From positions 9,101 through 73,100 of the forward strand of contig CAYLKL010000003.1 of assembly GCA_964384645.1 (NCBI GenBank): 64,000 nucleotides of DNA. The letters are read 5' to 3'. How positions within the stretch are numbered: position 1 is the first letter of the stretch; the number at the start of each line of letters is the position of its first letter. Positions 16,755-50,413 of the stretch are shown here, in pieces. Both the position numbers and the translations under genes were made by a program. The DNA is from an uncultured Candidatus Saccharibacteria bacterium. GTDB lineage: Bacteria > Patescibacteriota > Minisyncoccia > Phycocordibacterales > UBA9973. Below the pieces are notes generated by a model that did not search any database, was not told where the DNA came from, and saw nothing but the letters and a program-made list of their open reading frames with translations.

Positions 16755-16767
16755 TACCTTATAGGGC

Positions 16768-16798
16768 AAAACGGCGCAGTAGTGCGCCGTTTTTTTAT
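16768..16798 (+). terminator. Intrinsic terminator after pyrD
   Basis: Stem acggcgca-gtag-tgcgccgt followed by TTTTTTT. Confidence 0.75.
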
Positions 16799-16850
16799 TT
16801 GCAATAAAAAAATAAAAATGTAGGATGAAGCAAACTTTAAAAAATATCAT

Positions 16851-17894: not shown

Positions 17895-17898
17895 ATTG

Positions 17899-17927
17899 AA
17901 AGAGACCTGAAATGGTCTCTTTTTTAT
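17899..17927 (+). terminator. Intrinsic terminator after pyrC
   Basis: Stem agagacc-tgaaat-ggtctct followed by TTTTTT. Confidence 0.75.
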
Positions 17928-17984
17928 TTGCCCCAAAATAGTAGGTGTGATAGAAATATGAAAATTCATTTAAAAACAAAAACT

Positions 17985-18725: not shown

Positions 18726-18737
18726 GTTTTGAAATAA

Positions 18738-18772
18738 AAACAGGGAGACACAAATGTGTCTCCCTTTTTAAT
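18738..18772. terminator. Bidirectional intrinsic terminator between pyrE (+) and pyrF (-)
   Basis: Stem gggagacac-aaat-gtgtctccc with an A-run upstream and a T-run downstream. Confidence 0.8.
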
Positions 18773-18781
18773 TTAAATTGA

Positions 18782-19660
18782 TTAGTGAATAGATTGAGCG
18801 CGTAGTTCCATAACTTCTTTACGATATTCTGTTATGAGATCATGGGTCTCTTGAGCTGCTTCTCTGATGTTGCCTTTTGTGAAAATTATTCCACTCGAGG
18901 AATTAATAATGACTCCTGTTCCAAAACGATCTAGTCCATTTTCCACCACCTGCTTAAGGCTTCCTCCTTGTGTGCCTACACCAGGAATAAGAATTGGAAT
19001 ATCCCCTATAATCTCCCGAATTATTTGTAATTCTTCAGGATATGTTGCGCCGGCCACCAACAAACAATTACCATTTATGTTCCACTTATCACGCACGGTT
19101 TCTGCCACAACTTCAAAAAGTTTTTTGAATTGGGAATTACCAACCCTTACTTCTAAATCCTGAAATTCACCTGCTCCAGAATTAGAAGTCCGACAAAGCA
19201 CAATTACGCCCTTATCTTTTTGGTCAAGAAATGGCTTCATGGCTTCGCTTCCAAGATACGGATGTACCGTAATAGCATCGGCTTCGAGTTCATCAAAAAT
19301 TCCAGCAATATAGCCCATATTGGTATTCCCAATATCAGCTCTCTTTCCGTCCAGAATAATTGGAACATCTGGTGCAACATCATCCAGATATGCTTTTGTT
19401 CCAAACAATGCGGCAATTCCAATTTCTCCGTGAGCTTCGTAAAAAGCAATATTCGGCTTATAGGCACAAACAAGATCTTTTGTTTGATCGATCACCATTT
19501 TATTGAATTCGATAATAGTATCGAGTATTCGATGTCGGCTGTCTATAAATTTGTCGTGGATGAATTGGGGGATTTTTTTGTATTCAGAATCAAGCCCAAC
19601 ACATAAAAATTTATCTTCTGCCCATTTGGCGCGAAGCATTTCCATAAAGTTTCTTTCCAT
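18782..19660 (-). CDS. pyrF: Orotidine 5'-phosphate decarboxylase (long type-2 form)
   Basis: FLCVGLD, KPNIAFYEA and ILDGKRADIGNT (DxKxxDIxxT) motifs. Confidence 0.75.
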   Translation of the reverse strand: MERNFMEMLRAKWAEDKFLCVGLDSEYKKIPQFIHDKFIDSRHRILDTIIEFNKMVIDQTKDLVCAYKPNIAFYEAHGEIGIAALFGTKAYLDDVAPDVPIILDGKRADIGNTNMGYIAGIFDELEADAITVHPYLGSEAMKPFLDQKDKGVIVLCRTSNSGAGEFQDLEVRVGNSQFKKLFEVVAETVRDKWNINGNCLLVAGATYPEELQIIREIIGDIPILIPGVGTQGGSLKQVVENGLDRFGTGVIINSSSGIIFTKGNIREAAQETHDLITEYRKEVMELRAQSIH

Positions 19661-28837: not shown

Positions 28838-31246
28838 TTAAACTACTGGCTCCTCTCCTGCATCAGGTGTGTCTGTTGGAGCGTCTCCCCCTTGATCAGA
28901 CCCATCATCTTGGGTATCTGGAGTCTGACCTCCATCACCCTCTGGTTGACCGCCATCATCAACAACGTCGCCACTATCTGTGCCTCCATTAGAATCCGAA
29001 TTAGTATCGACGTTACTTTGTTCTAAAATTTGCAAAAATTGATCTCGAGTGACACAAACATCTTCAACACAAAGTTCTTTGGTTGTTATTTTATCTGTAA
29101 TAATTTCTACAAAATTTACCACACCATTTATTGTCTTTTGAATTCCACTTTCTAAATATTCAACAACCGAAGATAAACTTAGACCACTATTTCCACCTCC
29201 AACATTCATTGAATCAACTTTTAGGTTCAAATCTTGGATAGATTTCACAATCAAAGGTGTAAGTTTTGAATAATCTACCATCCAATATTTATCCTCTTCT
29301 TCTGGAACCATAACAGCATCTGGGTACACTTCAAAAAGTTCCTGAGCAATCACACCGTGAGTTAATTTCTGACTAGGATCATTTTTCCAATTAAAATCTC
29401 GTATTTTTATGTCTAAAAGACTGTCCAAAGACAAATCTGTATCTTCAATGTTTTCCTTAAGCCTTTGGTCTGAAGTTGTATTGTAGGATGTTGCGTTTGA
29501 AGCAAAAGTAATTGAACCAATAGTTGGATTACCTAGTGGATGAAAATTTATAAGAGTAGTTGGAGTAACATCTGATGGATCATTTCCTGCCACAACTGTT
29601 ATACCGAGATTTCCTGCAACACCTGAGGTGTTTTCAAATTTCGCAACAGCAGTCACAGGAGCTCCTCCAACGCTTAAAATATTCCCATTATCTATACTTG
29701 TACCGATATTTACTTCGCCCATAACATTAGCAAGGTAAATCCGCCCAACAGATCCAGCGTTAGAACCTGTCCCGCCCGCACCAGGATTTACATATATATC
29801 ACCCCCGTCTCCAGCTGTGTCAGAGGCACCAGTGGAATTACCCCCATCGCCAGCCAAGATATTAACGTCTCCACCAAAACCACCCTGTGCAGCTATGAAA
29901 CCTTGTTCTTCTCCATTACCTCCATCTCCAGCAAATAAATTCAAATTACCGGCATAGCCACCATTTGCAGTATTACCTACCGCGGTTCCATTTCCACCGT
30001 CCCCAGTAGAAATTGTGACATCTTGTCCAGAAGTACCAGCGGTATCTGTGTTATCAGCTCCATTTCCAGCAGATGCAACGATTACACCATTAGAATCCAA
30101 ATAAATCTGCCCTTCTGCACTTGTAGAATTAATTGCTCTGAAAGCATATGTTCCAGCACCGTCACCTAAAACATCGAGCGTTGAATCTGGTGAACTTGTA
30201 CCGACTCCTAAAAAATTATTAGTACTATTGTAAAAAAGTTGTGGTTCACCTTTTGATAATTGTTTCTGTCCAGAATTAGAAGTCCAAAAAGCAACTTGTC
30301 CTTCGAGTTGTGTACCGACACCTCCTTGTGTCACATAAGTTGATGGAGTAATACTCGTGTAAGTAATATTACTAGTACCAAAAACTGGTGCGTCTGTTTC
30401 TTGAACCCATTGTTTACCTTTTATTGTCCAGTTTCCACCTTCTGTGGCAATCACTATTTGTGGCGACATTTCACTCGGCTCGTCTGCATCGGTTGTTCTT
30501 GTTAAAACATATGGTGAACCGCCACTACCTAAACTTGTCACGATATAAACACCATTTTGAGTTTGCGCAGATTGATTTTTAACCAAAAGCCTATCGCCCA
30601 CACCAAGACTAATCCCGTTTATATTAGGCAAGGCACCATTTGTCGATTTTGTTATTGTTGCTCCAACACCAGAGCTTCCATTATCATAAGTCACGCCAGA
30701 AAGAGCTGCCGCTGTCCCTGCTCTAACTATTGTTGGAGATACAACCAAGTCATCGAAGTTTGGTGTTGCTAACCATTGATTCCCTCTTATTGACTCAAAA
30801 ATAAATCCTTTTCTATTACTTGTTAGATAAACAGTTGTTGTTTCATTTATGTAATCTCCAGAATATGCGTCTACTGTGACAGTATTCGAAGCCGATGTTT
30901 TTAAAACAGTAATTTTCCTGCTTTCTGTTACCGAAGATATCTGAGGAAGCACAATATTTACATCACCGGCGGCTGTATCTGCATAAATAACCTGATCGGT
31001 AGATAAAATACTATAAGGACTATCTGAGTCGTCGACGGTTGTGAAATTAACAACAGCAGGAGCAACGGCAGTTGTACAGTTTGTATCACTCGGTCCACAA
31101 GTTGGATCGAGAGTTATACCCGGTAAATATTTTGTAGTTGGTGGAGCAGAAAAAACAGTCAGTGTAGTAGAAAATAAAATGAAAAACAAAAGTATACCTG
31201 CTACTTTTTTCCAAACACTATCTGTATTTATTAAAAACTTTATCAT
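28838..31246 (-). CDS. Secreted tail-fibre-like protein: Gly-rich beta-helix-like repeats plus a C-terminal intramolecular-chaperone autoprocessing (peptidase S74-like) domain and an acidic tail
   Basis: N-terminal signal anchor. Long GDGGNG / GxGG repeat region. ...TTSDQRLKENIEDTDLSLDSLL... matches the S-D-x-R-x-K-E-N-I start of phage tail-fibre/endosialidase chaperone domains (Ser ~residue 592, nt ~29471). C-terminal D/E/G/P-rich tail. Confidence 0.6.
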   Translation of the reverse strand: MIKFLINTDSVWKKVAGILLFFILFSTTLTVFSAPPTTKYLPGITLDPTCGPSDTNCTTAVAPAVVNFTTVDDSDSPYSILSTDQVIYADTAAGDVNIVLPQISSVTESRKITVLKTSASNTVTVDAYSGDYINETTTVYLTSNRKGFIFESIRGNQWLATPNFDDLVVSPTIVRAGTAAALSGVTYDNGSSGVGATITKSTNGALPNINGISLGVGDRLLVKNQSAQTQNGVYIVTSLGSGGSPYVLTRTTDADEPSEMSPQIVIATEGGNWTIKGKQWVQETDAPVFGTSNITYTSITPSTYVTQGGVGTQLEGQVAFWTSNSGQKQLSKGEPQLFYNSTNNFLGVGTSSPDSTLDVLGDGAGTYAFRAINSTSAEGQIYLDSNGVIVASAGNGADNTDTAGTSGQDVTISTGDGGNGTAVGNTANGGYAGNLNLFAGDGGNGEEQGFIAAQGGFGGDVNILAGDGGNSTGASDTAGDGGDIYVNPGAGGTGSNAGSVGRIYLANVMGEVNIGTSIDNGNILSVGGAPVTAVAKFENTSGVAGNLGITVVAGNDPSDVTPTTLINFHPLGNPTIGSITFASNATSYNTTSDQRLKENIEDTDLSLDSLLDIKIRDFNWKNDPSQKLTHGVIAQELFEVYPDAVMVPEEEDKYWMVDYSKLTPLIVKSIQDLNLKVDSMNVGGGNSGLSLSSVVEYLESGIQKTINGVVNFVEIITDKITTKELCVEDVCVTRDQFLQILEQSNVDTNSDSNGGTDSGDVVDDGGQPEGDGGQTPDTQDDGSDQGGDAPTDTPDAGEEPVV

Positions 31247-33345
31247 TATAAATTTATTTTGAACACTTCGTTTATGTAACCCTTGTTTGCATTTATAACG
31301 CCTGATTTGAATACTGTTTTATAAGATTCATCTGCCAATTTTTGGTCTATTTCAACATAATAATTTCCTTGTGGCATCAAACAATAATATTGTCCGTATT
31401 TATTTGCCACTTTTTTAGAAATCAAAGTCTGTGTATCAGAATTGTATACTTTTATTATAGCAAATGAGATAGGATTCCCTTCCACATCCAAAATTTTTCC
31501 AAAATTTTTCGTTTTTATACCTGTTTCTCTTAAAAATAGAAGAATTAGGTACAAGCAAAAGACTAAAATATTGTAAGTTGAAAAAGAGGAAAGAATTGCT
31601 AGACATGAAACTGTAAATCCAAAAGAAAAGAAAGAGTCAGAAAGCTTTGTCAAAAAAACATCTCTTTTTGAATAATACTTCATCAGTTTTTGATCTCGCT
31701 TTGCAAATTCATTCCAATCAAAACCAATTGGATCCATTGGGATATTCTTGATAATCACGTCACCTGCTCTACTTACCTCAAAAACATCTCCGAAATACAA
31801 ATCCAAATATATTTCATCACGAGTTTTTCCCACCAATTTAAGTGACGGGAAAGAATAGTGAGTCTTTTTGGGTAACAGTCTATATTTTCCAGGCTCAACT
31901 AAAAATCCATAACGCCCATCCATATCAGTTATTGAGGATTGAATTTCTTTTCCTTCCAAATCTTGAAGAGAAACCATAACAGGATCTAGTGGTTGTTTTG
32001 TAACTGCATCATAAACAGTCCCCCAAGGTCTTGCTCTTTTTTTAATTCCAAAAGCACTCATAAGGGCTGACCACAATCTATACGGCAACATCCAAATTTC
32101 AGTAAAAGAAAGTGGTGTACCGAAAAGTTTTGGAAGAACAGAGAAAATTGCACCGAACAAAATTCCAACAATTCCAATCATTTTAATTATAGGATTGCCA
32201 TAATCACTCGTGATTATTTCTTTCATTTCATCAAAAGCAGCCAAAAAAGTATCTATAGTGTAATCATAGGTATCGATTATTATGCACCAAATGACACCCA
32301 ATATACTTGTTTCGTATTCGCACCCTGTCAGTGGGTCGAAAACATCGTCATCGCTTGGATCTTCTTCGTCATCATCAGTGGGAGGGTTATCATCGTCGTC
32401 AATTGGGTCCAAATCATCTCCCGGGTCTTCTTCATCTACTGGAACATCCTCGTCTGTTGGATCTTCCTCTTCATCAACAGGATCATCATCGCCAGGAGAA
32501 GAACACAAAGAATTTTGTGGATTTAGTGTACAAAAATCACCACCGAAATTTAAAATTATAATCCCAGTATAAACGTCTCCTCTAGAATTATCTATTGCTC
32601 GATATTTAAGTTCATAGTCACCTAAACTAGGCGGTGTCCAAGGAATAGAAATAGAATTGGAATTATTTACCAAAGCAACTAGTACGTCATCTATATAAAT
32701 AAAAATCTTTAAAATTGAACCGTCCGGGTCAGTAGCGTTTGCCGAAAGAGTAACATTTTGTAAAGTTGCATAGTTGTTGACTGTGTTGGTCGGATTTAGA
32801 ACAGTAATAATTGGTAAAATATTGTCATTTCCACCCCCACCACCTCCGCCAGTAACAACTGTGTTTCTCCAACTTGTATTTACACAGGCATCAACAACAC
32901 CACAATCAAATTGTATCCAGCCATAATTTTGACTCCAAGCATAACCATCAAAATTTCCATTGCTATCTATGGTTACAGTTTGAGCAGATGAATTATCAAA
33001 CGGTCCGAAATTTACCCAGCCAGCGTTCTCTCCCCAGGCAAAACCAGAAAGAACACCGCTTGTGGTATTGCTCACCTTAAAATCACTACCTCCACAAGAA
33101 CTATTATTTGAACAATTTAAACTAATCCAACCAATATTTTCTCCCCAAATATAACCCGTGAGTTCGCTTGATGTTACCGTGACGTTTTTATCTGAGTTGG
33201 TCGTAAAATAACCAAAATTTATAATACTACTATCGCTCTCTAATTTTGCTTTGTAATTTACAGAGTCGATGTTTCCAACGGCAAAAATAAAACTAGAAGG
33301 AAATAAAAATAGTGTTAAAAATAAAATTTTTTTTAGAAATTTCAT
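31246..33345 (-). CDS. Large polytopic surface protein: signal peptide, three G[FY]AW..GW[IV].F repeats, Ig-like domain, D/E/P-rich acidic linker, TM helices and two carboxypeptidase-regulatory-like beta-sandwich domains
   Basis: Repeats TGYIWGENIGWISLNCS, SGFAWGENAGWVNFGP and DGYAWSQNYGWIQFDC. GGGGGGG run. ~45-aa acidic linker. Hydrophobic helices at ~residues 390-440 and 560-600. GTVYDAVTKQPLDPVMVSLQD...DGRYGF carboxypeptidase-regulatory-like motif. 1-nt overlap with the downstream gene and 4-nt overlap with the upstream M50 gene. Confidence 0.55.
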   Translation of the reverse strand: MKFLKKILFLTLFLFPSSFIFAVGNIDSVNYKAKLESDSSIINFGYFTTNSDKNVTVTSSELTGYIWGENIGWISLNCSNNSSCGGSDFKVSNTTSGVLSGFAWGENAGWVNFGPFDNSSAQTVTIDSNGNFDGYAWSQNYGWIQFDCGVVDACVNTSWRNTVVTGGGGGGGNDNILPIITVLNPTNTVNNYATLQNVTLSANATDPDGSILKIFIYIDDVLVALVNNSNSISIPWTPPSLGDYELKYRAIDNSRGDVYTGIIILNFGGDFCTLNPQNSLCSSPGDDDPVDEEEDPTDEDVPVDEEDPGDDLDPIDDDDNPPTDDDEEDPSDDDVFDPLTGCEYETSILGVIWCIIIDTYDYTIDTFLAAFDEMKEIITSDYGNPIIKMIGIVGILFGAIFSVLPKLFGTPLSFTEIWMLPYRLWSALMSAFGIKKRARPWGTVYDAVTKQPLDPVMVSLQDLEGKEIQSSITDMDGRYGFLVEPGKYRLLPKKTHYSFPSLKLVGKTRDEIYLDLYFGDVFEVSRAGDVIIKNIPMDPIGFDWNEFAKRDQKLMKYYSKRDVFLTKLSDSFFSFGFTVSCLAILSSFSTYNILVFCLYLILLFLRETGIKTKNFGKILDVEGNPISFAIIKVYNSDTQTLISKKVANKYGQYYCLMPQGNYYVEIDQKLADESYKTVFKSGVINANKGYINEVFKINL

Positions 33346-34310: not shown

Positions 34311-35168
34311 CTAATTATCTAAATAAATTTTTTCCCCGTCGCTTATAAAAGTGATTATTCCAAAATCATAAGTCGCCAGACTTTTAATATTTAAAGCCTC
34401 AACCCTATCCATAACGTCTTTGTGCGGATGTCCGTATGTATTATTAAGTCCGGCTGAAATAATAACGACTTCGGGATCGACTGCTTTCAAAAATTCCATC
34501 GAAGAAGAAGTTTTTGAACCATGATGTCCTAATTTCAAAACATCCGATTCTATATTTTTAAAATTTTTTATTATTCTTTCTTCGTCTTCAATATAAGCAT
34601 CCCCCGTTAGCATGAATTCTGAATTTCCATACACCAACCGTCCGCAAATAGAAGCATCATTTGCTTCAACAAAAGAGACATCTGAATCGGGTGATAAAAT
34701 TTCAAAGCGCACATTTTTATCTTTGTCTAAATAAATATTTGTCCCCGCTCTAGCTAAAAAAGTTTTTATTCCTTTATTTTGAGCAATCTTTAAAATTTGA
34801 TTATAATTAGTGTTGTCGGCAATATTTCCAGAAATAAATAAAGAGCCAATATCATATTCTTGAATAATAGAAACCAAGCCACCAGAATGATCTTCGTCTG
34901 GATGTGTGACAACCAACACATCAATTCTATTATCAAAGCTATCCATCACCGAGTCTAATTTCTGTAACAATAAATCCCCTGACCTACCCCCGTCTATCAA
35001 CATATCAGTCTTCCCAAATGCCTTTATATAAATAGCGTCACCTTGACCAATATCTAAAAAAGAAACCTGTAGAGGGTATTCTTTTTTAAATTCCCTAATA
35101 GAAAGAAACCCTAAAATTACCAAAAGTAGAAATATTACAAAAATCTTGTTTTTCTTAATTCTTTCCAT
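34311..35168 (-). CDS. Stand-alone metallo-beta-lactamase domain protein of the ComEC C-terminal-domain type
   Basis: VLVVTHPDEDHSGGL (HxDxDH) plus downstream GHHGS and DAS motifs. N-terminal TM anchor. 285 aa. Confidence 0.65.
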   Translation of the reverse strand: MERIKKNKIFVIFLLLVILGFLSIREFKKEYPLQVSFLDIGQGDAIYIKAFGKTDMLIDGGRSGDLLLQKLDSVMDSFDNRIDVLVVTHPDEDHSGGLVSIIQEYDIGSLFISGNIADNTNYNQILKIAQNKGIKTFLARAGTNIYLDKDKNVRFEILSPDSDVSFVEANDASICGRLVYGNSEFMLTGDAYIEDEERIIKNFKNIESDVLKLGHHGSKTSSSMEFLKAVDPEVVIISAGLNNTYGHPHKDVMDRVEALNIKSLATYDFGIITFISDGEKIYLDN

Positions 35169-35775
35169 GAGTTATACTTCTTATGTTATGACACAATTTA
35201 ACCCAAAACAATTTAATATCCCTACTCTTATCGGTATAAGCGCTAAAAATATAGAAGAGCACACGAAACTCTATTTAGGCTATGTAAAACACGCTAATTT
35301 AATTCAAGAACATATAGAAGAATTGTCTAAAGATTCTGAAAAATATGCTTACGAACTTGGCGAAATAAATCGTCGATTTTCTTTTGAATTTAATGGAATG
35401 AGAAACCACGAAGTCTATTTTTCTCTTTTTGAAGATGGAGCAAAAGAATTAAACACAGATAGTTTGCTTTCAAAAGAAATCGAGAAAACTTTCGGAAGTT
35501 TTGATAATTTAATAAACAAATTTAAAGCTATTGCCATGACTCGCGGAATTGGCTGGGCAATGTTATCTTTGGATCTTGAAAACAAATCTTTAATCCTTCA
35601 TTGGCTAGATGAACAACATCTAGGTCAACTCCAAAATACAAAACCAATCGTCGCTCTTGATATGTGGGAACATTCATTTGTTTCTGATTATCAACCAAGT
35701 GGTAAAAAACAGTACGTTGAAGATTTCTTCAAAAATATAAACTGGACTGTCTCTGAAAAAAGATTCGAAGAATAA
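35146..35775 (+). CDS. Fe/Mn superoxide dismutase family protein (divergent)
   Basis: EEHTKLYLGYVKHAN, NGMRNHEVYF, RGIGWAMLSLD and ALDMWEHSFVSDY are collinear with the SOD HHTKHH / WNHTFYW / GSGWAWL / DVWEHAYY motifs, with metal ligands retained. The start is more likely the ATG at 35167 or 35188. Confidence 0.6.
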   Translation: MFFLILSMSYTSYVMTQFNPKQFNIPTLIGISAKNIEEHTKLYLGYVKHANLIQEHIEELSKDSEKYAYELGEINRRFSFEFNGMRNHEVYFSLFEDGAKELNTDSLLSKEIEKTFGSFDNLINKFKAIAMTRGIGWAMLSLDLENKSLILHWLDEQHLGQLQNTKPIVALDMWEHSFVSDYQPSGKKQYVEDFFKNINWTVSEKRFEE

Positions 35776-35808
35776 AAAAAGCCTCTCATAAAAATGAGAG
35801 GCTTTTGC
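35774..35808. terminator. Bidirectional intrinsic terminator between the SOD-family gene and the secreted-protein gene
   Basis: Stem gcctctca-taaaaa-tgagaggc with an A-run and a T-run. Confidence 0.75.
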
Positions 35809-35822
35809 AATTTAAACGCAGT

Positions 35823-37526
35823 TTATTCTTTTATAAATCGCTTGGTCTTGTGACCAACAACTACAAAATAAAAACCAGGTTTAATTTTTGAAACATCAAT
35901 CACCTCTTCGATAGCACCGGCAGATTGTTCGATAACAACTTTACCTAATGGATCGATAACAGTAATGGTATCTCCTACTTTGATCTTTTCGATAACCAAA
36001 TGGTCGGTTGTCGGATTTGGGTAGATTTTTATATCACCCATATCATCCTGAAACGCTTCTGTACGGACTTCGGCATTATCAGTAACTTCTTCCTGTTTTT
36101 CATCCGCAGAAAGACGACAGCTTGCTCCAAGAGTAACATTGACCACAGTGGAAGTTCTAAGAACTCCATACTTGTTAGTAACGATAACCTTGTATTTACC
36201 GACAGTAGTAACAATTAAACTATTCCCGGTTGCTCCGGCAATAACGTTCCCATACTTCTTCCAAACATAAGTAGCGTTTGAATCATATGGAACAGAAAGA
36301 GTGACATCTTGTCCGGGACAGATAGTTGTACTACCAAGTATTGATACTGCAGCACTTGGCGCAGGATATGTGACACGAGTTAAAATCATGTCGTAAGTTG
36401 AACTCGGCATATATGCTCGTGAACGCATACCTACAAACACCCAACCTATACCTGCATTCCTTTGAGCAAGACCTGTAAAGACATAAGCTCCCGTACTATT
36501 AGTTGTTTCTTTCCTGACCCAAATTCTATTAAAATTTGGGGAGTACTCAGCACCATAAGCACCGGTTGTTGTATTGAAATTTCCAAACATTCCCGCAACA
36601 ACAAAACCAGCATAAGAGTCTTCCATCTGAACTATCGATCCAGCTTCTGTTGTCTGAAATATTCCTGATACATTACCAAGCAAATCAACACTGACAAAAG
36701 AAATAAGGCTAGTCGCAGCATCTTCTTTGAGTCCGACAAAAAGAGAATTTTCTCTTTCGCCAAAACACATTTCAGTTGCAGTGTAACCCAGTGGCAAAGC
36801 AGATGACCAAAGTGTACCCCCGGAAGCATCCAAACAATAAACCGTTTGAATAACATTCCAAGAAGGATCATATCCTCTTACAAGAACAAAAGAATTTCCA
36901 GCGATCGTTGGAGCAACCGAAGTTGCAGCAAAACCATTAAAAAATCTTGTCCAAGTAGGAACACCTAATAAATCAAGCTTTGTAACGAAAGCGTTTTGAC
37001 CCTGAGCAGGTATTCTGTCTGAGCTAAAACAAGATCCGGATAAAAATAAATTATTACCCAAAATCCTCAAGCTTATAGGATTATCGTGACCACTACCGGA
37101 GACATTTGTAAGAATCGTAGACCATAAAACATTTGCAGATGCATCTTTTTTATACAAAGAGATGTCTCCGTTATTTTGGTCTTTCGAATAAACAAAAAAT
37201 ACACCAGATTGATCAGAGACCGTCGCCATATCAGACGATACCGCAGACTGTGACACAAACGATGAATCAAACCCACGAATTGCACCGTTATTGTAAGTAG
37301 TACTCGAGACAACACCAATACTTCCAGTTCCTTTCGGAACTCTGAGCCCACCAACGTATGAGTTTGCACCCATTGTTGATATGACTGGATTAATGGTCGA
37401 TTCGGATGTATCTACTACAGCTTTTTTGAATGTAACGGCTGGAGATTGAGCATTTACTATTTCGGGGCAATATATACCCTGGATAAGTATAATCAATAAG
37501 ATCATAAGATATTTGATTGTTTTCAT
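35823..37526 (-). CDS. Secreted beta-rich protein with an Ig-like domain and a C-terminal Por_Secre_tail (T9SS-type sorting) domain
   Basis: Signal peptide. C-terminal DIKIYPNPTTDHLVIEKIKVGDTITVIDPLGKVVIEQSAGAIEEVIDVSKIKPGFYFVVVGHKTKRFIKE fits the T9SS CTD consensus (YPNP...I.D..G..V...........ID.S.L..G.Y.V.V....). Confidence 0.55.
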   Translation of the reverse strand: MKTIKYLMILLIILIQGIYCPEIVNAQSPAVTFKKAVVDTSESTINPVISTMGANSYVGGLRVPKGTGSIGVVSSTTYNNGAIRGFDSSFVSQSAVSSDMATVSDQSGVFFVYSKDQNNGDISLYKKDASANVLWSTILTNVSGSGHDNPISLRILGNNLFLSGSCFSSDRIPAQGQNAFVTKLDLLGVPTWTRFFNGFAATSVAPTIAGNSFVLVRGYDPSWNVIQTVYCLDASGGTLWSSALPLGYTATEMCFGERENSLFVGLKEDAATSLISFVSVDLLGNVSGIFQTTEAGSIVQMEDSYAGFVVAGMFGNFNTTTGAYGAEYSPNFNRIWVRKETTNSTGAYVFTGLAQRNAGIGWVFVGMRSRAYMPSSTYDMILTRVTYPAPSAAVSILGSTTICPGQDVTLSVPYDSNATYVWKKYGNVIAGATGNSLIVTTVGKYKVIVTNKYGVLRTSTVVNVTLGASCRLSADEKQEEVTDNAEVRTEAFQDDMGDIKIYPNPTTDHLVIEKIKVGDTITVIDPLGKVVIEQSAGAIEEVIDVSKIKPGFYFVVVGHKTKRFIKE

Positions 37527-37585
37527 AGAACAAGTTTTTAGAGTTTGACTGAATTTTTGTTTACTTAACTATATCACACAAATAC

Positions 37586-39049
37586 CTATTTTGTCAAGTA
37601 AAAAACCCTTGTTTTATAAGCCCAAACAGCAATAATTCCATACAAGACTAACATTATAAATAGCCCGAAATCCTTGAAAACAAAGGCCGAAATTGATAAT
37701 CCCGAAATAAATTTAGAAATGCTTATAACTACCCTTAACCCAAAATCCACACCTATTACAAAAGGAAAGGCTAAAACCGGACTAACTACCCCCACTATTC
37801 CCCCAATAAAACCTAGTAGCATGATTACCGGAATTAGAGGCAAAACAACAATATTTGTAGGCACAGATAAAACAGAAAGGAGTCTAGTTTGGTAAAGAAT
37901 AATTGGCAAAACTGCAACTTGAGCAGCCAAAGATGTTGCAATTATTTCTTTCAAAAAATATGGCAATTTTGTGTACAAACTTTGTTGTATTTTTTTAGTA
38001 AATAAAATTATTCCTAATGTTGCCAAAACTGAAAGCTGAAATGAAAAATCAAAATAAATAAGCCGAGGATTTATTATGTTCATAACAAGTACAGCAATAA
38101 ATAAAGCCCGAAGAGACATATACATATTTCCAGAACGTAAAGCGATGAGAGATATTATGGCCATAATTCCCGCCCTAACTGCAGTGATAGGAACACCTGT
38201 CATTAGAATAAAAAGAATTATTGATACAACTGAAAAAACAGAACTAGTTTTAGCTCCTATATTTAAAAACAATGCTTTTACCCAAGAAGCAATAACTGTA
38301 ATATTATAACCAGACAAAGCAATAATATGAGTCAGACCTGCAATACGAAATGAGTCAGCCAAATCGCTACTTAAAATATTTTTACCAAACAAAATACCAG
38401 CAAATAAATTTTCAATATCTCCCCGCAATCTATCTGCAAAAGGTTCAATGAAATTATCCCTCAAAAGAAAAAGTTTTCTTCTAAAATTATTCTTATTACT
38501 CTCTACTTTTTCAATTTTTGTATCATAACTTAAATAAAAAATGTTTTTAGTCTTCAAAAATTCATCGTATTCAAATTCTGTATTTGTATCAGTTTTAAAA
38601 GGTTTTGGTTTCTCAAAATTACCCACCACAGAAAGAATGTCTCCGTGCAAAAAGTTTTCTCCTATATCCTTACTGTATAACAAAACATTTTCTTTAGTTT
38701 TTTGCCCATTTATTACTGGCTTACACTGAAATTTAAATTGATTATTCTTGTACTCAACATCACCTGATACTTGGCAACTTAGATATAATGGCGCTTTTCC
38801 TTCAATTTTAAGAGCAGAAACTCTATTGGAATTATCCAATTTGAAATAACCAAAGCCAAACAAAAATGAAAATAAAAATACAGCGATCAATCCAATTTCT
38901 GCTGATTTTCTTATTACTGCTAAAAATAAAATAGCAAAATTAATTGCTATTAAAATATAAATTTCTATATTTAAAATTGGTGAAAAAAACAGGCCAAATA
39001 AAAATCCAAAACCTAATATTAAAGATATTTTATTTAAATTTGCGCCCAT
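37586..39049 (-). CDS. comEC: Competence protein ComEC/Rec2 membrane channel domain, without the C-terminal MBL domain
   Basis: Polytopic. GLTHIIALSGYNITVIASW matches the ComEC competence-domain signature. 487 aa. Confidence 0.75.
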   Translation of the reverse strand: MGANLNKISLILGFGFLFGLFFSPILNIEIYILIAINFAILFLAVIRKSAEIGLIAVFLFSFLFGFGYFKLDNSNRVSALKIEGKAPLYLSCQVSGDVEYKNNQFKFQCKPVINGQKTKENVLLYSKDIGENFLHGDILSVVGNFEKPKPFKTDTNTEFEYDEFLKTKNIFYLSYDTKIEKVESNKNNFRRKLFLLRDNFIEPFADRLRGDIENLFAGILFGKNILSSDLADSFRIAGLTHIIALSGYNITVIASWVKALFLNIGAKTSSVFSVVSIILFILMTGVPITAVRAGIMAIISLIALRSGNMYMSLRALFIAVLVMNIINPRLIYFDFSFQLSVLATLGIILFTKKIQQSLYTKLPYFLKEIIATSLAAQVAVLPIILYQTRLLSVLSVPTNIVVLPLIPVIMLLGFIGGIVGVVSPVLAFPFVIGVDFGLRVVISISKFISGLSISAFVFKDFGLFIMLVLYGIIAVWAYKTRVFYLTK

Positions 39050-39744
39050 TCTTTTAGTAATTCAGATTCTTCTTCTTTTGAGTGTACTTTTCTAAATTTT
39101 GCACCATTCTTCCCCTTAACATCCTGCTCACAAGATTTCCAATCTTTATACGTTTTTAAAACACCAGCAACTAAACTAACATAAGAATAAGCTGGCCTTT
39201 TGTCGTTTGATTTTTTAATAGTCACCTTAAGGTCTTTTAAAATATCTTCATGTTTACTTTTTTCTCCCACAAAAAGAGTTATGCTCTTGTTATCAGCAAA
39301 AGCTTGAGCAATAATATCCGCTCTCTCATTTAAAATAACACCGGCGTGACCAGGAACTTTTTCCAATTTCAAACCTCTACTCTTAAGTCTAAAACAAATA
39401 CCAAATAAATCTTTCCAAATATCTTGATTTAAAACTATATTCCCCTCTTTTGTTTTCCATCCAGTTTTCTCCCAAGCAAACATCCAACCAGAAATACCAT
39501 TTACTACATAGGCTGAATCAGAAAAAATAACAATTTCACCATTATTCGTTCTGCTTTCAATTAATTCCAAACTTTTCAAAACAGCCATCATTTCCATTCT
39601 GTTGTTTGTAGTTTTGTCTTCTCTGCCACCTATCTCTAAAATCTTACCTTCTGAAAATAAAATAATTGCACCATACCCTCCAGGACCAGGATTTCCTCTA
39701 GATGCTCCGTCTGTATAAACAAGTATTTTATTTTCATTATTCAT
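39034..39744 (-). CDS. rnhA: Ribonuclease HI with an ~80-aa basic C-terminal extension
   Basis: VYTDGASRGNPGPGGYG...NNRMEMMAV...FSDSAYVVNG...PGHAGVILNERADIIA catalytic D-E-D-D pattern. Overlaps the comEC start by 16 nt. Confidence 0.85.
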   Translation of the reverse strand: MNNENKILVYTDGASRGNPGPGGYGAIILFSEGKILEIGGREDKTTNNRMEMMAVLKSLELIESRTNNGEIVIFSDSAYVVNGISGWMFAWEKTGWKTKEGNIVLNQDIWKDLFGICFRLKSRGLKLEKVPGHAGVILNERADIIAQAFADNKSITLFVGEKSKHEDILKDLKVTIKKSNDKRPAYSYVSLVAGVLKTYKDWKSCEQDVKGKNGAKFRKVHSKEEESELLKEWAQI

Positions 39745-39822: not shown

Positions 39823-42800
39823 TTAGAAAACTGAAACTCTGGTTATCGTAATTATTGGCGTTGAGGCCACTTCTGCACCCTGAGCGTTATATCCTTTTGC
39901 TTGATATTGAATATCTTTTGTTATAAGCCCTAACGGTCTCCATGTGCAGTTAAAATTAGGTGCAGAACTTGACGTACACTCTCTTGTCAATCCATTGTTA
40001 TACCTAAAATATTTTACCTTTGTTATTGGCCCGCCAACTGAAACTTTCATAGTGTAAACTTGGCCACTTTGTACAGTAAGGCCGTTTGTTGGGAAAACCC
40101 ATGAAATATAAGTTCCAGCTAAAACAGACACATTAACAGCAGTTGATGTCGAAGTATTGCCCACGGCGTCAATAGCGATAGCAGTTATTGTATGATTGCC
40201 ACCTGATGCCCCTGTAGTATCCCACGAAACACTATAAGGTGAAGTTGTGTCTATTCCAACAGACACACCGTCTACTTTGAATTCAACAGAAGCAATGCCT
40301 GAAGCGTCGGTTGCGTTTGCAGATAAGGTTACAGTTGTTCCTACTGCCACACTTGACCCGTCTATTGGTGCACTAATTGAAACAGTTGGAGGTGTTGTTT
40401 CTGGACCACAACTCCCCAAATTCAAATTAGAATTTTCAGTAAGTATGAATTTATCAAGTTGGAAGTTAGCTGAAAGTCCTGTGAATGTGAAAGTGTGCGC
40501 AGTGTTTGGGGTAACAGAAGAGAAAACGATAGGTGTACCTGCTTGGTTTTTGTTACACCAACCAAAAGTTGTTGAGTTTGAAGAAATTGTTTGAGCTGTA
40601 CCTGAATCTACTTTTACTGTAGCAGTTGATGTTCCAGTTGCTGATTTTGCGAAATACCATAGGTAATATGTTTTTGGAATAGAACCTGTTGCGTCTCTTG
40701 GTTCAAATTTGTAAGTTGTTGATCCAGTGCTTGGGTTTATGTAAGTTGTGAAGTTTGTGTAGTCTCCCGCTGGTGTACCTGCTGGAGTTGTAGTAGTTCT
40801 TGATGCAGAACCTGTGTCATAGACTTCTGCTTCAAAACTAAAGTCCTTTGACCAGTACCATGGGTGTGATGATTCGTGCCATGCGTCTAGTTGGTAAAAT
40901 ACTGGTGATGCTCCTGTTTTATCGTAGATGTAGGTGGAGCCTTGGCGTCTTGAATTAAATTTCAAAACTTCCCCAGAAAGATTTATGTTAACTGGTGCAA
41001 TTTCTGGAACAGCACCATCCATATTAGTATATTGATTTAAGTTAGTTGCAATTAAATATTTATTTACAGAATTATCTTTTCTAACAGTAGTAAATGCATC
41101 CATTCTTCCACTCTTGAAAGCGTAACCCGGAGTAGTACTAGAAGAAGCATAATCAAGAGGTAAATCACCAGTCATAACATTACTATTTTTATAGAAAGAA
41201 TCTACATAACTAAATACAGCTTGAGAATAAGAAGGTATCATATTCTGCCAAATTTTTTGAGCAGGCCAACCATCTTCACTTGTTCCAACTCGATTAAAAT
41301 ATCCAGTATGGAAAAATTCCGATCCCATATTGTTTACGTTTTTAGAAAGACCCAACCATTGACCAGGTGAAATATTTTGCTCAGCTTTCAAATCCCAACC
41401 TGGAGACATGTAAGCTCCGAAGAATTTATCTCCTGTTGCTTGTTGTCTGCCCATTACTTTTTGGATAAAGTACATACCGTTCCAAGCAGAAATTTTACTT
41501 CTCCAGTTAGATGGCCATCTTGGATAAAAGTCAGGCGTTGCATAGTATTGGCCATTTATAGGAGATTGCATTTTTCTTGCCTCACTCCACTTAAATCTTG
41601 TAGCTTCTTCGTATCCATCTACTGCGTACTCTAAATATTTTGAACCAGCAAGTCCTGGGATAGACAAAATTATATCTCTATATGTTTGATTGGCCATATC
41701 TGAAACGGTTTTCGCAACGTAAGACTGTGCATCCATTCCAGAAGAACTTATTGCAGAACTAACTGCTGGATCAGAATTTAGAGCATTTGTTTCGTACTTA
41801 ACTAAAATTTCACCATTCTCACTTATTAGATCAATTTTTGGTGCTGGCTTTGTTAATTGATTCACAACGCTATTAACCATACTTTTCATAGCATTTCCGT
41901 CTGGTGTGTATTGTGAAAACTGAGAACTAAGAGGTCTCCAAACTTTTGAAGTTGTTACGTTTCCGTTTATATCAATAAACTGACCAGAAGAATTTTGTAA
42001 ATAATACTGGTTTCCAAATCCTTGGTACCTCAAACAAGGCATATTAGATCCACCTCCACAAGTTGAAGCACCTGAAAGCTGAGCTCTTAAAATAACCAAC
42101 TGAGTTGGTAAAGTTGGATTTGAATTTGAATAACTTATCAATCCAGGTGTCCCTGAAACACCTGTGTCCAAGTTACTACTTGTAAGACTTGGAGCTAGAT
42201 CTAAATAATAATTCCATTTCTTTGCCATTTCACCCGCGATTGAAACTCCAGCCTGAACTTGAGCAGCTGAGTGCGTGTAAGTAAAATCTGTTGGTGTAAA
42301 GTGTGCTAAATAATCTAGGTCGTTCCAGTTAAAATTTCTAAGTAATGTATGCCCTGTTTTATATCTAGGCAATGGAACACTTTGAAGTTGAGTTAACACA
42401 GTTGGTGGTGTTGTTGAATATGTTGTGTAAGGAGAAGTTCCAAGCTGTGCTCCTGGCAAATAATCCATTGTGTCAAAAGATGACGAAACAGCTTGAGCAT
42501 TTGGGGTATTTGTAATATTTGTTACCCAAGAATAAGACTGTCCGTTTGTTATTGAATCTAAATAGTGCTGATATATTAGGTTACCAGGCAAATCATTACT
42601 CCATAGTGCAAATTGATCTATTGCACCAACATATCTTCTTTCGGCGGTACTGTTACCAAAAAACTTTATGTCACCGTTTGAAGATTTTATTTTATTAGTA
42701 TTCGCAACTGTTTTTGAAAAACCAGTTGGCAAAACTCCATCAACCCAAATTTCTTTTACTCCATTTGAGTATTTAAAAACCATATGATGCCAATTACCGT

Positions 42801-43362
42801 CGTTGTAATATGCTGGAGATTTTGGCCCAACTCCATCTAAGGCAATTTGGAAATCGTCTGAAACTGAATTTGTACCAGTAGTTCCAGTTGTTGAAAATCT
42901 AATATAAGGAACAGAAGTACTTGCTACAGGACTCTCAAATAAGATAGAAAAAGAATTATCAGTAGTTGTCATAAAATTTGAAACCAATATGTCGTCAGGT
43001 TTCCAAATAAATTCAACAGCAAAAGAAGAAGAAGCTGAAGTTGGTGTTTTCCCAATTGTTTGATAACAACCAGAACTGCTTGTATAGTTCAAATACTTCC
43101 CAACTGGACCATTTGATTGTTGAACAAATGGACAACTCGTCCCATTTGTAAATGTCGAAGATCCGATGGTCGCAGAGTTCCAAGGATTTCCTTCAAATTG
43201 CCAGTACGAATAAGGCTGAATCGGAGTTGTTACAGCGTTATACGTTGCAGCCAACTGTCCCCCAAAAAATCTAGATAAATTAAATGGAGACAAAAAATCT
43301 ATAACTAATAAAATTACTAATAATAATACAACTGATAAAATTAAACTCTTTTTCTTTTTCAT
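39823..43362 (-). CDS. Giant surface protein 1 (1179 aa): signal anchor, LamG/concanavalin-A-like domain, large conserved central domain, C-terminal Ig-like domains
   Basis: N-terminal TM. DGNWHHMVF LamG-type motif. C-terminal ...VTLSANATDASGIASVEFKVDGVSVGIDTTSPYSVSWDT Ig-like repeats. Paralog of the downstream gene. Confidence 0.6.
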   Translation of the reverse strand: MKKKKSLILSVVLLLVILLVIDFLSPFNLSRFFGGQLAATYNAVTTPIQPYSYWQFEGNPWNSATIGSSTFTNGTSCPFVQQSNGPVGKYLNYTSSSGCYQTIGKTPTSASSSFAVEFIWKPDDILVSNFMTTTDNSFSILFESPVASTSVPYIRFSTTGTTGTNSVSDDFQIALDGVGPKSPAYYNDGNWHHMVFKYSNGVKEIWVDGVLPTGFSKTVANTNKIKSSNGDIKFFGNSTAERRYVGAIDQFALWSNDLPGNLIYQHYLDSITNGQSYSWVTNITNTPNAQAVSSSFDTMDYLPGAQLGTSPYTTYSTTPPTVLTQLQSVPLPRYKTGHTLLRNFNWNDLDYLAHFTPTDFTYTHSAAQVQAGVSIAGEMAKKWNYYLDLAPSLTSSNLDTGVSGTPGLISYSNSNPTLPTQLVILRAQLSGASTCGGGSNMPCLRYQGFGNQYYLQNSSGQFIDINGNVTTSKVWRPLSSQFSQYTPDGNAMKSMVNSVVNQLTKPAPKIDLISENGEILVKYETNALNSDPAVSSAISSSGMDAQSYVAKTVSDMANQTYRDIILSIPGLAGSKYLEYAVDGYEEATRFKWSEARKMQSPINGQYYATPDFYPRWPSNWRSKISAWNGMYFIQKVMGRQQATGDKFFGAYMSPGWDLKAEQNISPGQWLGLSKNVNNMGSEFFHTGYFNRVGTSEDGWPAQKIWQNMIPSYSQAVFSYVDSFYKNSNVMTGDLPLDYASSSTTPGYAFKSGRMDAFTTVRKDNSVNKYLIATNLNQYTNMDGAVPEIAPVNINLSGEVLKFNSRRQGSTYIYDKTGASPVFYQLDAWHESSHPWYWSKDFSFEAEVYDTGSASRTTTTPAGTPAGDYTNFTTYINPSTGSTTYKFEPRDATGSIPKTYYLWYFAKSATGTSTATVKVDSGTAQTISSNSTTFGWCNKNQAGTPIVFSSVTPNTAHTFTFTGLSANFQLDKFILTENSNLNLGSCGPETTPPTVSISAPIDGSSVAVGTTVTLSANATDASGIASVEFKVDGVSVGIDTTSPYSVSWDTTGASGGNHTITAIAIDAVGNTSTSTAVNVSVLAGTYISWVFPTNGLTVQSGQVYTMKVSVGGPITKVKYFRYNNGLTRECTSSSAPNFNCTWRPLGLITKDIQYQAKGYNAQGAEVASTPIITITRVSVF
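40407..40951. repeat. Copy A of an intragenic duplicated block (identical to 45627-46171)
   Basis: 40432-40951 is 100% identical to 45652-46171 at a constant offset of 5220. Near-identity extends back to ~40261 / 45481. Confidence 0.9.
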
Positions 43363-43400
43363 AACTTATATAAGTATACAACTTTTGCAACTAAAAAAAT

Positions 43401-43430
43401 AAAAAACTCTGGATATCCAGAGTTTTTTAT
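43401..43430 (-). terminator. Intrinsic terminator after giant surface-protein gene 2
   Basis: Palindrome ctctggat|atccagag followed by TTTTTTT. Confidence 0.7.
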
Positions 43431-43440
43431 TTTTTTAGTT

Positions 43441-48730: not shown

Positions 48731-50413
48731 TTAATGTATATCAAGTATTCTAATTCTAATTTTTTCATAACCTCCAAAAAAACTTTTTTCCACCAATCCA
48801 ACCATAGTAATGAAATCACCTTTTTTCATATCTATTTTGTAATCTTCAGGTTTTTTAAAAAAGGCAATGGCTTTAATTGCTTGCCCGTTAATACTAATCT
48901 CAAGCTCTGTATGGTTTTTTTCTTTACCAAAAGTCTTTACACCCAAAATAAGAGCATCTTTTAGTTCAAAAACAGGCTTTGGATTACCCATCCCAAAAGG
49001 GGCGAACTTTTCCATACTCGAAACACCGTTTCTATTAACAAAAAAACTGTCGAATTCTATAAAATTTTCATTTTCTTCATTATTCTGACTACTTGAACTT
49101 AAAAAAGCCTTCTCAAGTAACGCTGGCAGGTTATGTATTTCACCATCTTTAACAGAAAATCCACCTGCTTTTTTGTGGCCACCTATATCTATAAAGGAAT
49201 CTACTGTATTTTTCATTATTTCAACTACGTCAGCATTTCCAAAAGACCTACAAGACCCCTTAATAACCTCTTTTTCTCCATGAGTCCTACCCCAAACAAA
49301 TGTAGTCTTTTTATATTCTTCACATAACTTACTGGCCAAAAGACCTAAAAGCCCAGGACTCCATGTCGGACTACCGACACAAATGACATTTTCGAAACCT
49401 CTAGTTTTTATGCTTTTATTGGCTTCTTTCATCATAGTTGCGACGATTATCTTTCTTTTGTCAGAAAGTTTTGCTAAATCCTCAGACAAAATATCTGCTG
49501 AATCTTTATCTTCCGCACTTAAAAGCTGATATGCCTTGTAAGCCTCATCCATTCGGGAAGCCGCATTTATCTTTGGGGCAATTGAGAAATTTATATCGTC
49601 TTCTGTGATATTTCTAATATTTATCTTTGATCTATCCGCCAAGGCTTTGAGTCCGAGACGTTTTCCTTTTCTCATAACCATAAGGCCGTATTTTGCCAAA
49701 ACCCTATTTTCATCAATTAAAGGAACTTGGTCAGCAATAGTAGAAAGTGCCACCAAATCAAGTAACCATTTTTCTTTACCGCGTGGATATTTAAAATACT
49801 CATGGTATTTATCCAAAAAACCTAATATAACTTTGTAGGTTATACCTGTTCCACAAAGTTCTCGGAATGGATATTTAGAATCTTTTAACTTTGGGTTTAT
49901 TAGGGCGAAAGGCTTTGGTAAAACATCCGGCGCTTCGTGATGATCAATAACAATAACGTTTACTCCATTTGCTTCAGCAAAATCAATCGCCTCTCTAGCC
50001 GTCGTCCCTAAATCTATAGTTATCAGCAAGGTTGTTTTTAAATCTATGATTTTCTCAAGAATCCCTTGGTGTAGTCCGTAACCTAAAGTATTTCGATCAG
50101 GTATGTAAACTTCTAAATGTCTAACACCTAAACTTCTTAAAAATTCAGAAAGTATTGTTGCCCCAGGTATTCCATCACAATCATAATCTGAATATATAGC
50201 TATTTTCTCACCCGCCGTAATGGCACTAAAAATTCTCTCAATCGCTTTTTCGAGATCTGGTAACAGTTTAGGATCATGCAAATCCCTTATATAATCAGGA
50301 TTTAAAAACTTTTCTTTTTCAATTTCTGTTTTAATACCTATTTTTTCAAATAGTTTGTCGAAAACATTTTCCATCTTGGATTCATTAGGGGTCTTTTGCG
50401 TAAGCATGGTCAA
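48731..50413 (-). CDS. recJ: Single-stranded-DNA-specific exonuclease RecJ
   Basis: DHH motifs SDYDCDGIPG, ITIDLGT and VIVIDHHE, plus DHHA1 GGHKKAGG. The true start may be the internal MENVFDKL. Confidence 0.85.
   Translation of the reverse strand: MTMLTQKTPNESKMENVFDKLFEKIGIKTEIEKEKFLNPDYIRDLHDPKLLPDLEKAIERIFSAITAGEKIAIYSDYDCDGIPGATILSEFLRSLGVRHLEVYIPDRNTLGYGLHQGILEKIIDLKTTLLITIDLGTTAREAIDFAEANGVNVIVIDHHEAPDVLPKPFALINPKLKDSKYPFRELCGTGITYKVILGFLDKYHEYFKYPRGKEKWLLDLVALSTIADQVPLIDENRVLAKYGLMVMRKGKRLGLKALADRSKINIRNITEDDINFSIAPKINAASRMDEAYKAYQLLSAEDKDSADILSEDLAKLSDKRKIIVATMMKEANKSIKTRGFENVICVGSPTWSPGLLGLLASKLCEEYKKTTFVWGRTHGEKEVIKGSCRSFGNADVVEIMKNTVDSFIDIGGHKKAGGFSVKDGEIHNLPALLEKAFLSSSSQNNEENENFIEFDSFFVNRNGVSSMEKFAPFGMGNPKPVFELKDALILGVKTFGKEKNHTELEISINGQAIKAIAFFKKPEDYKIDMKKGDFITMVGLVEKSFFGGYEKIRIRILDIH

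Follow-up and report, generated by a model that had tools for sequence, protein, structure and literature searches.

How does a DNA-uptake channel work when the nuclease that usually belongs to it is encoded by another gene? Transformation universally relies on ComEC as its DNA-import channel, and about half of all ComECs are without a nuclease domain. Removal of the second strand in such proteins is an open question (Silale et al. 2021, PMC8579336). We analyze a stretch of 64,000 nucleotides (the window) from an uncultured Candidatus Saccharibacteria bacterium (contig CAYLKL010000003.1, positions 9,101 to 73,100), in which the ComEC membrane channel and a ComEC-type metallo-beta-lactamase (MBL) protein are encoded by 2 separate genes. 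The locus probably specifies a two-subunit ComEC: a channel and an extracytoplasmic MBL nuclease, the latter anchored by an equivalent of transmembrane helix 11 (TM11), that assemble in the membrane.

An earlier reading of the window from its letters and open reading frames (ORFs), here called the original prediction, had proposed a split ComEC at this site; every ORF that it listed is present where it was placed. The 2 genes at issue, separated by 2417 bp, are as follows.

37586..39049, minus strand: comEC channel subunit, 487 amino acids (PF13567 E 6.5e-11, PF03772 E 1.8e-41)
34311..35168, minus strand: predicted ComEC-type MBL nuclease subunit, 285 amino acids (TIGR00361, Lactamase_B)

A detached nuclease domain

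The MBL protein finds its best NCBIfam match in TIGR00361 (ComEC_Rec2), at model positions 420-659 of 663 (E 9.5e-42), and matches Pfam Lactamase_B (E 1.3e-11). A profile of the stand-alone MBL proteins retrieves 9ic4, the crystal structure of a ComEC MBL domain, at E 1e-53, and residues 514-790 of the full-length ComEC 30bt at E 4e-53; its best match to an MBL outside ComEC stands at about 1e-4 (7.6e-5). Residues 12-280 of the window protein, the transmembrane (TM) helix included, are aligned with residues 516-790 of 30bt. In an AlphaFold2 (AF2) model, the MBL half matches 9ic4 with a TMt of 0.84, and its nearest structural relative outside ComEC is the pneumococcal phosphorylcholine esterase Pce. 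A neighbor-joining (NJ) tree, which carries no support values, sets the stand-alone MBLs of the candidate phyla radiation (CPR), the window's included, next to the MBL domains of fused Chloroflexota ComECs and apart from a Firmicutes stand-alone clade. On these matches, we read the 285-residue protein as a genuine ComEC-type MBL, a detached ComEC domain. As the original prediction expected, profile search and tree both cluster it with ComEC C-terminal domains and not with unrelated MBL hydrolases. Its identity as an unrelated hydrolase or a beta-lactamase is ruled out by the ComEC-specific profile matches.

The motif HPDEDH occupies residues 89-94 (H89-P-D91-E-D93-H94) and aligns with THPDADH of 9ic4; the other MBL ligands are D190, H215/H216, and H247/H249. 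In the family alignment, no variation is seen at D91, D93, H94, D190, H215, H216, or H247, and very little at H249. H89, present in the window protein, is not invariant across the family. In the CPR stand-alone MBLs P0024, P0026, P0044, and P0096 (alignment A1), asparagine takes the place of the first histidine of HxDxDH; these variants read TNPDxDH or SNPDEDH and keep all remaining ligands. Judging by sequence, a subclade with this substitution could bind metal differently. For the window protein, Mn2+-dependent nuclease activity is predicted from its likeness to ComEC nuclease domains.

A single TM segment (residues 9-27) follows a basic N-terminus of charge +4, MERIKKNK. It is aligned with the segment of 30bt immediately before the MBL domain, which we treat as TM11. 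The MBL domain would thus be extracytoplasmic and tethered by a TM11 equivalent, a topology predicted from the positive-inside rule only. The stand-alone ComEC-type MBL with HPDEDH motif and N-terminal TM anchor that the original prediction described is recovered by TIGR00361, by 9ic4, and by the segment at residues 9-27.

A channel that stops short of the nuclease

The channel protein is laid out as TM1-3, an oligonucleotide-binding (OB) fold of the DUF4131 type (residues 27-175), and a Competence domain (residues 224-478), with 3 TM segments before residue 70 and modeled beta-strands at residues 88-183. PF03772 scores 142.7 bits against a cut-off of 23, and PF13567 scores 42.6 bits against 31.6. 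The protein is aligned to residues 126-443 of full-length 30bt (E 2e-22), and H241, S246, G247, R292, and other residues are invariant across split and fused forms (alignment A4: 10 split pairs, 16 naturally fused proteins). The Pfam scan finds no Lactamase_B on the channel protein; the ORF ends at residue 487, where a lysine- and arginine-rich tail after the TM10 equivalent closes with ...AYKTRVFYLTK. A check with domain hidden Markov models therefore agrees with the earlier claim of a ComEC channel that lacks its C-terminal MBL domain: DUF4131 and Competence are there, Lactamase_B is not.

The break point

Both window proteins tile fused Chloroflexota ComECs end to end. In one fused protein (L037), residues 10-474 of the channel correspond to residues 4-484 and residues 22-283 of the MBL protein to residues 529-787. 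In every split sequence of alignment A4, the break lies within the basic loop that joins TM10 to TM11. From this alignment, we place it in the cytoplasmic TM10-TM11 loop, with TM11 apparently kept as the MBL anchor. If the chain is cut in a cytoplasmic loop, both of the ends so formed stay in the cytoplasm, which fits the lysine- and arginine-rich channel end and the MERIKKNK start of the MBL protein; both are basic, in keeping with the positive-inside pattern.

In a cryo-electron microscopy (cryo-EM) study of ComEC, TM10 is followed by a short helix in the cytoplasm, and TM11 leads through a flexible linker to an MBL in the periplasm; TM11 is loosely bound and absent in one protomer, and the MBL is positioned by a small conserved contact with a loop of the OB fold (PMC13539106). 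Such an architecture should tolerate a break at the TM10-TM11 loop.

The arrangement can be set beside 2 known forms of ComEC. Three-domain ComEC/Rec2 (Bacillus subtilis; Neomoorella carbonis 30bt; MBL domain 9ic4) has the same OB fold, channel, and MBL with HxDxDH, in the same module order and with the same inferred topology, and the window proteins align with it essentially end to end. In the window, however, the polypeptide is broken in the TM10-TM11 loop, the genes are 2.4 kb apart with an antisense superoxide dismutase (SOD) gene and an inserted secreted-protein gene between the halves, and there is no co-transcription. ComECs of the "DC profile" share the channel of DUF4131 and Competence domains, and their strand degradation is necessarily in trans. 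These MBL-less proteins use another nuclease, as Streptococcus pneumoniae uses EndA; the Helicobacter pylori ComEC is also without a C-terminal domain (CTD) (PMC6299819, PMC8579336). In contrast, the likely trans nuclease of the window is the ComEC MBL domain itself, TM-anchored and usually channel-linked.

Spread across the lineage

With an alignment of stand-alone MBLs, we fetched 80 loci from contigs of one genome per species and searched their ORFs with the window proteins. Fused ComECs account for 19 of the 80 loci, mostly in Chloroflexota, and 61 loci are non-fused. The channel gene lies upstream on the same strand in 40 of the 61; in 12 others, the flank is too short to judge its presence. 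Among the 40 split loci, the channel gene is directly adjacent to the MBL gene (a gap of at most 100 bp) or overlaps it in 13, from Moranbacteria and others; the same antisense SOD gene as in the window separates the 2 genes in 15; and other spacers, including a VTT/DedA-domain gene in Yonathbacteria-type loci, are found in 12. The VTT/DedA membrane-protein gene stands antisense between the halves in L006 (3979-4569) and also in L005, L008, L011, and L073. A small antisense gene between the comEC halves is a recurring pattern, and the slot is filled by different genes.

The homologues of each half tell the same story. The best 120 channel homologues are 415-517 residues long and contain DUF4131 and Competence only; none of the 120 has an MBL domain. 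The MBL protein has more than 6900 homologues; of the best 120 listed, nearly all are stand-alone proteins of about 285-290 residues. JGI labels these homologues "competence protein ComEC." The closest organism-named homologues of the channel, the MBL protein, and the RNase HI encoded next to the channel come from metagenome-assembled genomes (MAGs) of Paceibacterota, Nomurabacteria, Yonathbacteria, and similar groups. Because 40 loci are split in synteny and the channel homologues are MBL-less, the split is a lineage trait: the two-gene ComEC is a conserved standard layout in Patescibacteria and not peculiar to this genome. In this manner, the split that had been proposed proves real, and its standing as a peculiarity of the locus is lost, since the layout is lineage-wide. 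Meheust et al. 2019 (PMC6744442) had already described the ComEC-MBL fusion as essentially absent from CPR; the separate, syntenic, TM-anchored MBL gene seen here is, in what was accessible of that paper, not mentioned for its CPR ComEC family.

Individual loci show further arrangements. In L003 (7579-12954), the gene order is tpiA-pgk-MBL-rpmB-M50-rpsL-rpsG; the recJ-rnhA-comEC-sod segment is missing there, and the MBL gene comes directly after pgk. Among the fused forms of Chloroflexota nests L058, where the split, with adjacent genes, arose independently; L051, also from Chloroflexota, has an extra stand-alone MBL beside a 793-residue ComEC. In a Bacillota MAG (L055, 2324-6495), a 303-residue stand-alone ComEC-type MBL is encoded 840 bp upstream of a complete 806-residue ComEC. 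Stand-alone paralogues of this Firmicutes type (L055; L066 from Paenibacillus) resemble the window MBL in their length of about 300 residues and in being closest to ComEC C-terminal domains. They differ in forming a separate clade and in coexisting with a complete ComEC, as extra copies and not as a missing half.

RNase HI and the genes around the split

The genes and elements that border the 2 halves are listed below.

39034..39744, minus strand: rnhA, RNase HI, 236 amino acids (PF00075 E 9.8e-33, NF001236 E 7.7e-41)
39037..39192, minus strand: C-terminal hybrid-binding domain (HBD) of RNase HI, about residues 185-236 (PF01693 E 0.0016)
35188..35775 (ORF from 35146), plus strand: Fe/Mn SOD, antisense between the comEC halves (PF02777 E 2.2e-23)
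35823..37526, minus strand: secreted Por-tail protein, 567 amino acids, with a signal-like N-terminus (PF18962 E 2.4e-10)
35777..35806, strand not applicable: terminator-like bidirectional hairpin, 13-bp stem flanked by an A-run and a T-run
48731..50413, minus strand: recJ, given as context (DHH, DHHA1, and RecJ_OB domains)

RNase HI has its catalytic domain at residues 5-150, followed by a linker and the C-terminal HBD. Residues D12, E51, D76, H133, and D143, the DEDD(H) site, are invariant in the alignment of homologues; PF00075 scores 113.7 bits, and NF001236, with 139 bits, falls short of the equivalog cut-off of 160. The last 50 or so residues match PF01693 at 19 bits, just below the cut-off of 21, and this family is flagged on several RNase HI homologues. 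A lineage profile of the tail matches the N-terminal domain of yeast RNase H1 (1qhk, E 2e-6) and the human HBD (3bsu, E 1.7e-3). The AF2 model of the tail (predicted local distance difference test, pLDDT, 82) has the order beta-beta-alpha-beta-alpha, and its best PDB matches are again 1qhk and 3bsu; against the 3bsu chains, the TMt is 0.70-0.74 at a root-mean-square deviation of 2.2-2.8 A, with E-values that are non-significant for so small a domain.

The tail is a C-terminal hybrid-binding domain of the RNase H1 or viroplasmin type. A low-complexity basic extension was considered for it and rejected on the HBD profile and fold matches. Long forms of RNase HI (225-270 residues, with an extension of about 80) are common in Paceibacteria, so that what had been described as an unusual basic tail of about 80 residues is an HBD widespread in that group. 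Eukaryotic-type RNase H1 (human 3bsu, yeast 1qhk, PF01693) is built from the same catalytic domain and an HBD that shares both the fold and the W...C...KG...K(F/Y)KK signature; the order is reversed, with the HBD N-terminal there and C-terminal in the window. No hydrophobic segment was found in RNase HI, and the enzyme is for this reason presumably cytoplasmic.

The rnhA stop and the comEC ATG share 16 nt (ATGGGCGCAAATTTAA), an overlap already noted in the original prediction and read directly in the sequence. Immediate adjacency of rnhA upstream of comEC is found in 22 of the 40 split loci: in all 15 of the SOD type and in 1 of the 13 of the adjacent type. In 18 related loci, recJ lies directly upstream of rnhA-comEC. 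These genes sit in a conserved backbone that runs tpiA - pgk - (hit) - recJ - rnhA - comEC - (sod) - MBL - (rpmB) - M50 protease - rpsL - rpsG. The adjacency of rnhA and comEC is weak evidence of a functional link, because the whole block, unrelated housekeeping genes included, is conserved.

Against this backbone, the window carries its own insertions: a pair of Big_7 genes between recJ and rnhA, the Por-tail gene between comEC and sod, and surface-protein genes between the M50 protease gene and rpsL. The first pair encodes giant surface proteins with Ig-domains (Big_7) at 39823-48618 and leaves recJ 9 kb from rnhA. The giant surface proteins at 28838-33345 and 39823-48618 carry Big_7, Big_13, and CARDB Ig-like domains, one of them with a Peptidase_S74 tail-fiber chaperone. 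Their genes look like lineage-specific insertions of host-interaction genes. Apart from inserted surface-protein genes, nothing in the window is unusual compared with its relatives.

At E 8e-28, the SOD matches 1coj, an Aquifex Fe-SOD, and the ligand motifs (H, H, and D..H) line up. PF02777 scores 82.7 bits; PF00081, at 22.8 bits, does not reach its cut-off of 27. By its sequence, the protein is an ordinary Fe/Mn SOD. Its start is most likely the ATG at 35188, without overlap with the MBL gene, because the Logan gene call and the alignments of homologues agree on it. The MBL ATG (35168, minus strand) and the probable SOD ATG (35188, plus strand) are divergent, with 19 bp between them; given so short a gap, the promoter of each gene must lie within the coding sequence of the other, unless the mRNAs are leaderless.

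The Por-tail protein ends in a C-terminal sorting domain of the type IX secretion system (T9SS) kind (PF18962/TIGR04183, 41 bits against a cut-off of 27). To our knowledge, a T9SS is unexpected in Patescibacteria, and no T9SS components were seen in the 64-kb window. Among the 80 fetched loci, a homologue is found only on the Logan contig of the same organism (L002); the gene is a genome-specific insertion outside the ComEC system. A divergent SOD-family gene and a secreted Por-tail protein had been placed between the comEC halves; both are there, and the SOD, with its match to 1coj, is not especially divergent.

The Por-tail and SOD genes converge on the strong hairpin at 35777-35806. With this terminator-like element between them, comEC and the MBL gene are not co-transcribed here. 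A promoter scan gives 20 sites against 22.9 expected from shuffled sequence; one strong 11-of-12 match, at 37597-37568, precedes the Por-tail gene.

The wider window

The window is a chromosome piece of a Paceibacteria/Parcubacteria-type Patescibacterium. It has a GC content of about 35% and holds a ribosomal-protein supercluster together with genes for EF-Tu/EF-G, SecY, tpiA, pgk, recJ, nusA, trigger factor, H+-PPase, and several giant Ig-domain surface proteins. Among the annotated proteins of the 64 kb, there are no comEA, comF, dprA, or pilus genes, and the same stretch holds no second copy of ComEC or of a ComEC-type MBL. Scans of the window for tRNA and Rfam families return zero matches.

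Two further loci deserve mention. A 912-residue protein (2325-5063) has HerA/DUF87 and TraG-D_C matches, like a VirD4/TraG-type coupling ATPase. Conjugation-type type IV secretion systems (T4SSs) have been reported for Patescibacteria, and the protein may be part of one. Within the ribosomal-protein supercluster, at 15828-19660, are genes for a dihydroorotate dehydrogenase, an amidohydrolase (pyrC-like), a phosphoribosyltransferase (pyrE-like), and an orotidine monophosphate (OMP) decarboxylase. Patescibacteria are usually regarded as incapable of de novo nucleotide synthesis, which makes these late pyrimidine genes notable.

Weighing the readings

The homology of both halves, their tiling, the position of the split, the conserved synteny, and the intact catalytic and channel residues are observed, and from them we infer, with good but incomplete confidence, a ComEC of 2 subunits; its assembly, topology, nuclease activity, and role in DNA uptake would be as follows. 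The channel and MBL polypeptides would enter the membrane separately, with their junction-side termini in the cytoplasm. The 2 halves would come together in the manner of a fused ComEC, with the OB-fold loop and TM11 keeping the MBL at the mouth of the channel, and the MBL would degrade the non-translocated strand during import of single-stranded DNA (ssDNA). rnhA is a conserved upstream neighbor, probably co-transcribed with comEC and possibly translationally coupled to it.

Several results weigh against this proposal. The hairpin separates the channel and MBL genes, which do not form one operon in the window. Each half scores below the full-length cut-off of TIGR00361 (58.8 bits for the channel and 143 bits for the MBL protein, against 190.05). 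Nine of the 61 non-fused loci show no channel gene in the fetched flank, which extends 3 kb or more upstream in each; L003, the window's nearest neighbor from another genome in the NJ tree, is one of them, and the segment missing there means that the channel gene is elsewhere in that genome or absent. The Bacillota stand-alone MBL coexists with a complete three-domain ComEC (L055), so that stand-alone MBLs can exist without completing a truncated ComEC. Lastly, an AF2 model of the artificially concatenated channel and MBL proteins, made with an unpaired multiple sequence alignment (MSA) and a covalent tether, reaches a pLDDT of 90.3 and a predicted TM-score (pTM) of 0.69, with a pLDDT of 51-65 at residues 488-520 (the junction and TM11); in the MAFFT-built MSA behind it, about 37 residues at the N-terminus of MBL homologues and about 25 at the C-terminus of channel homologues are misaligned. 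The model is confident per domain and says little on docking.

Split genes in MAGs are often artefacts, and an assembly error, a frameshift, or a decaying comEC pseudogene might be suspected here. We give this virtually no credence: the same 2 proteins occur on independent Logan contigs, the split is at the same position in 40 genomes, and the invariant functional residues are kept in both halves. An artefact or pseudogene is ruled out, with the halves 2.4 kb apart and 2 intact genes between them. A different reading lets the 285-residue MBL protein act alone, as a membrane-anchored extracellular nuclease or phosphodiesterase that does not dock, with a role such as nucleotide or phosphate scavenging or wall-polymer hydrolysis, while the channel works like other MBL-less ComECs. 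The transcriptional separation at the hairpin, the 9 loci without a channel gene within at least 3 kb upstream (L003 included), and the Firmicutes protein beside a complete ComEC in L055 all speak for it, as do the structural kinship with Pce (also PMC12455585) and the nuclease activity of the isolated ComEC MBL domain in vitro (PMC12455585, PMC8579336). We nonetheless consider it rather unlikely: the TM11-equivalent helix is retained at the exact break point, 13 loci have the 2 genes directly side by side or overlapping, 40 of 61 have them on one strand no more than 10 kb apart, and, with none of the 120 nearest channel homologues fused, the lineage would otherwise be without a ComEC nuclease.

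The original prediction favored a nucleic-acid scavenging apparatus of channel, detached nuclease domain, and RNase H. Put as a dedicated module, recJ-rnhA-comEC-MBL, it would import DNA or RNA:DNA hybrids and degrade them by the HBD-bearing RNase HI and RecJ to feed nucleotide pools. The scavenging idea is voiced for CPR ComEC in PMC6744442, and it draws on the 22 of 40 split loci in which rnhA directly precedes comEC, on recJ upstream of rnhA in 18, on the 16-nt overlap in the window, and on the extra hybrid-binding domain. The same block, however, holds tpiA, pgk, hit, rpmB, the M50 protease gene, rpsL, and rpsG, so the adjacency may be gene-order conservation; only 1 of 13 adjacent-type loci has rnhA upstream of comEC, and recJ is 9 kb from rnhA in the window. 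Moreover, RNase HI, without a hydrophobic segment, is presumably cytoplasmic, the window itself encodes pyrD, pyrF, phosphoribosyltransferase, and amidohydrolase genes, and saccharibacterial comEC, in the one CPR organism tested, is required for transformation and dispensable for growth (PMC10633639). We regard the scavenging module as very improbable. The two-subunit ComEC can also be put in a stronger form, in which the TM-anchored MBL is an obligatory trans-acting ComEC subunit throughout Patescibacteria and the recJ-rnhA(HBD)-comEC neighborhood may reflect a coupling of import and processing; in this full extent, the claim is a doubtful one, distinctly unlikely to hold.

What the split means

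The arrangement is partly anticipated by the literature and by database annotation. In the searchable literature, we found no paper that explicitly describes a split ComEC in CPR or links rnhA to comEC, and no statement that the MBL is retained as a separate, syntenic, TM-anchored gene. The new content is modest and consists of the precise break point in the TM10-TM11 loop, TM11 as a likely anchor, the synteny with an antisense SOD gene, and the C-terminal HBD of RNase HI. In CPR genomes, the "MBL fold metallo-hydrolase" of about 285 residues should be annotated as the second subunit of ComEC rather than as a candidate beta-lactamase for antibiotic resistance.

These loci suggest that Patescibacteria kept the nuclease as a separate membrane-anchored product rather than losing it, and the break site is in a loop whose structure is loose in the new cryo-EM study. 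The proposal is testable, since Saccharibacteria are genetically manipulable, and the answer would show structural biologists whether the channel-nuclease interface is self-sufficient. If the stronger form were true, the recJ-rnhA(HBD)-comEC neighborhood could point to import coupled to the processing of RNA:DNA hybrids or incoming ssDNA. Patescibacteria would then be a natural split-protein experiment in which nuclease and channel need no covalent link, and they would provide, for this lineage, a concrete answer to how CTD-less ComECs degrade the non-transforming strand.

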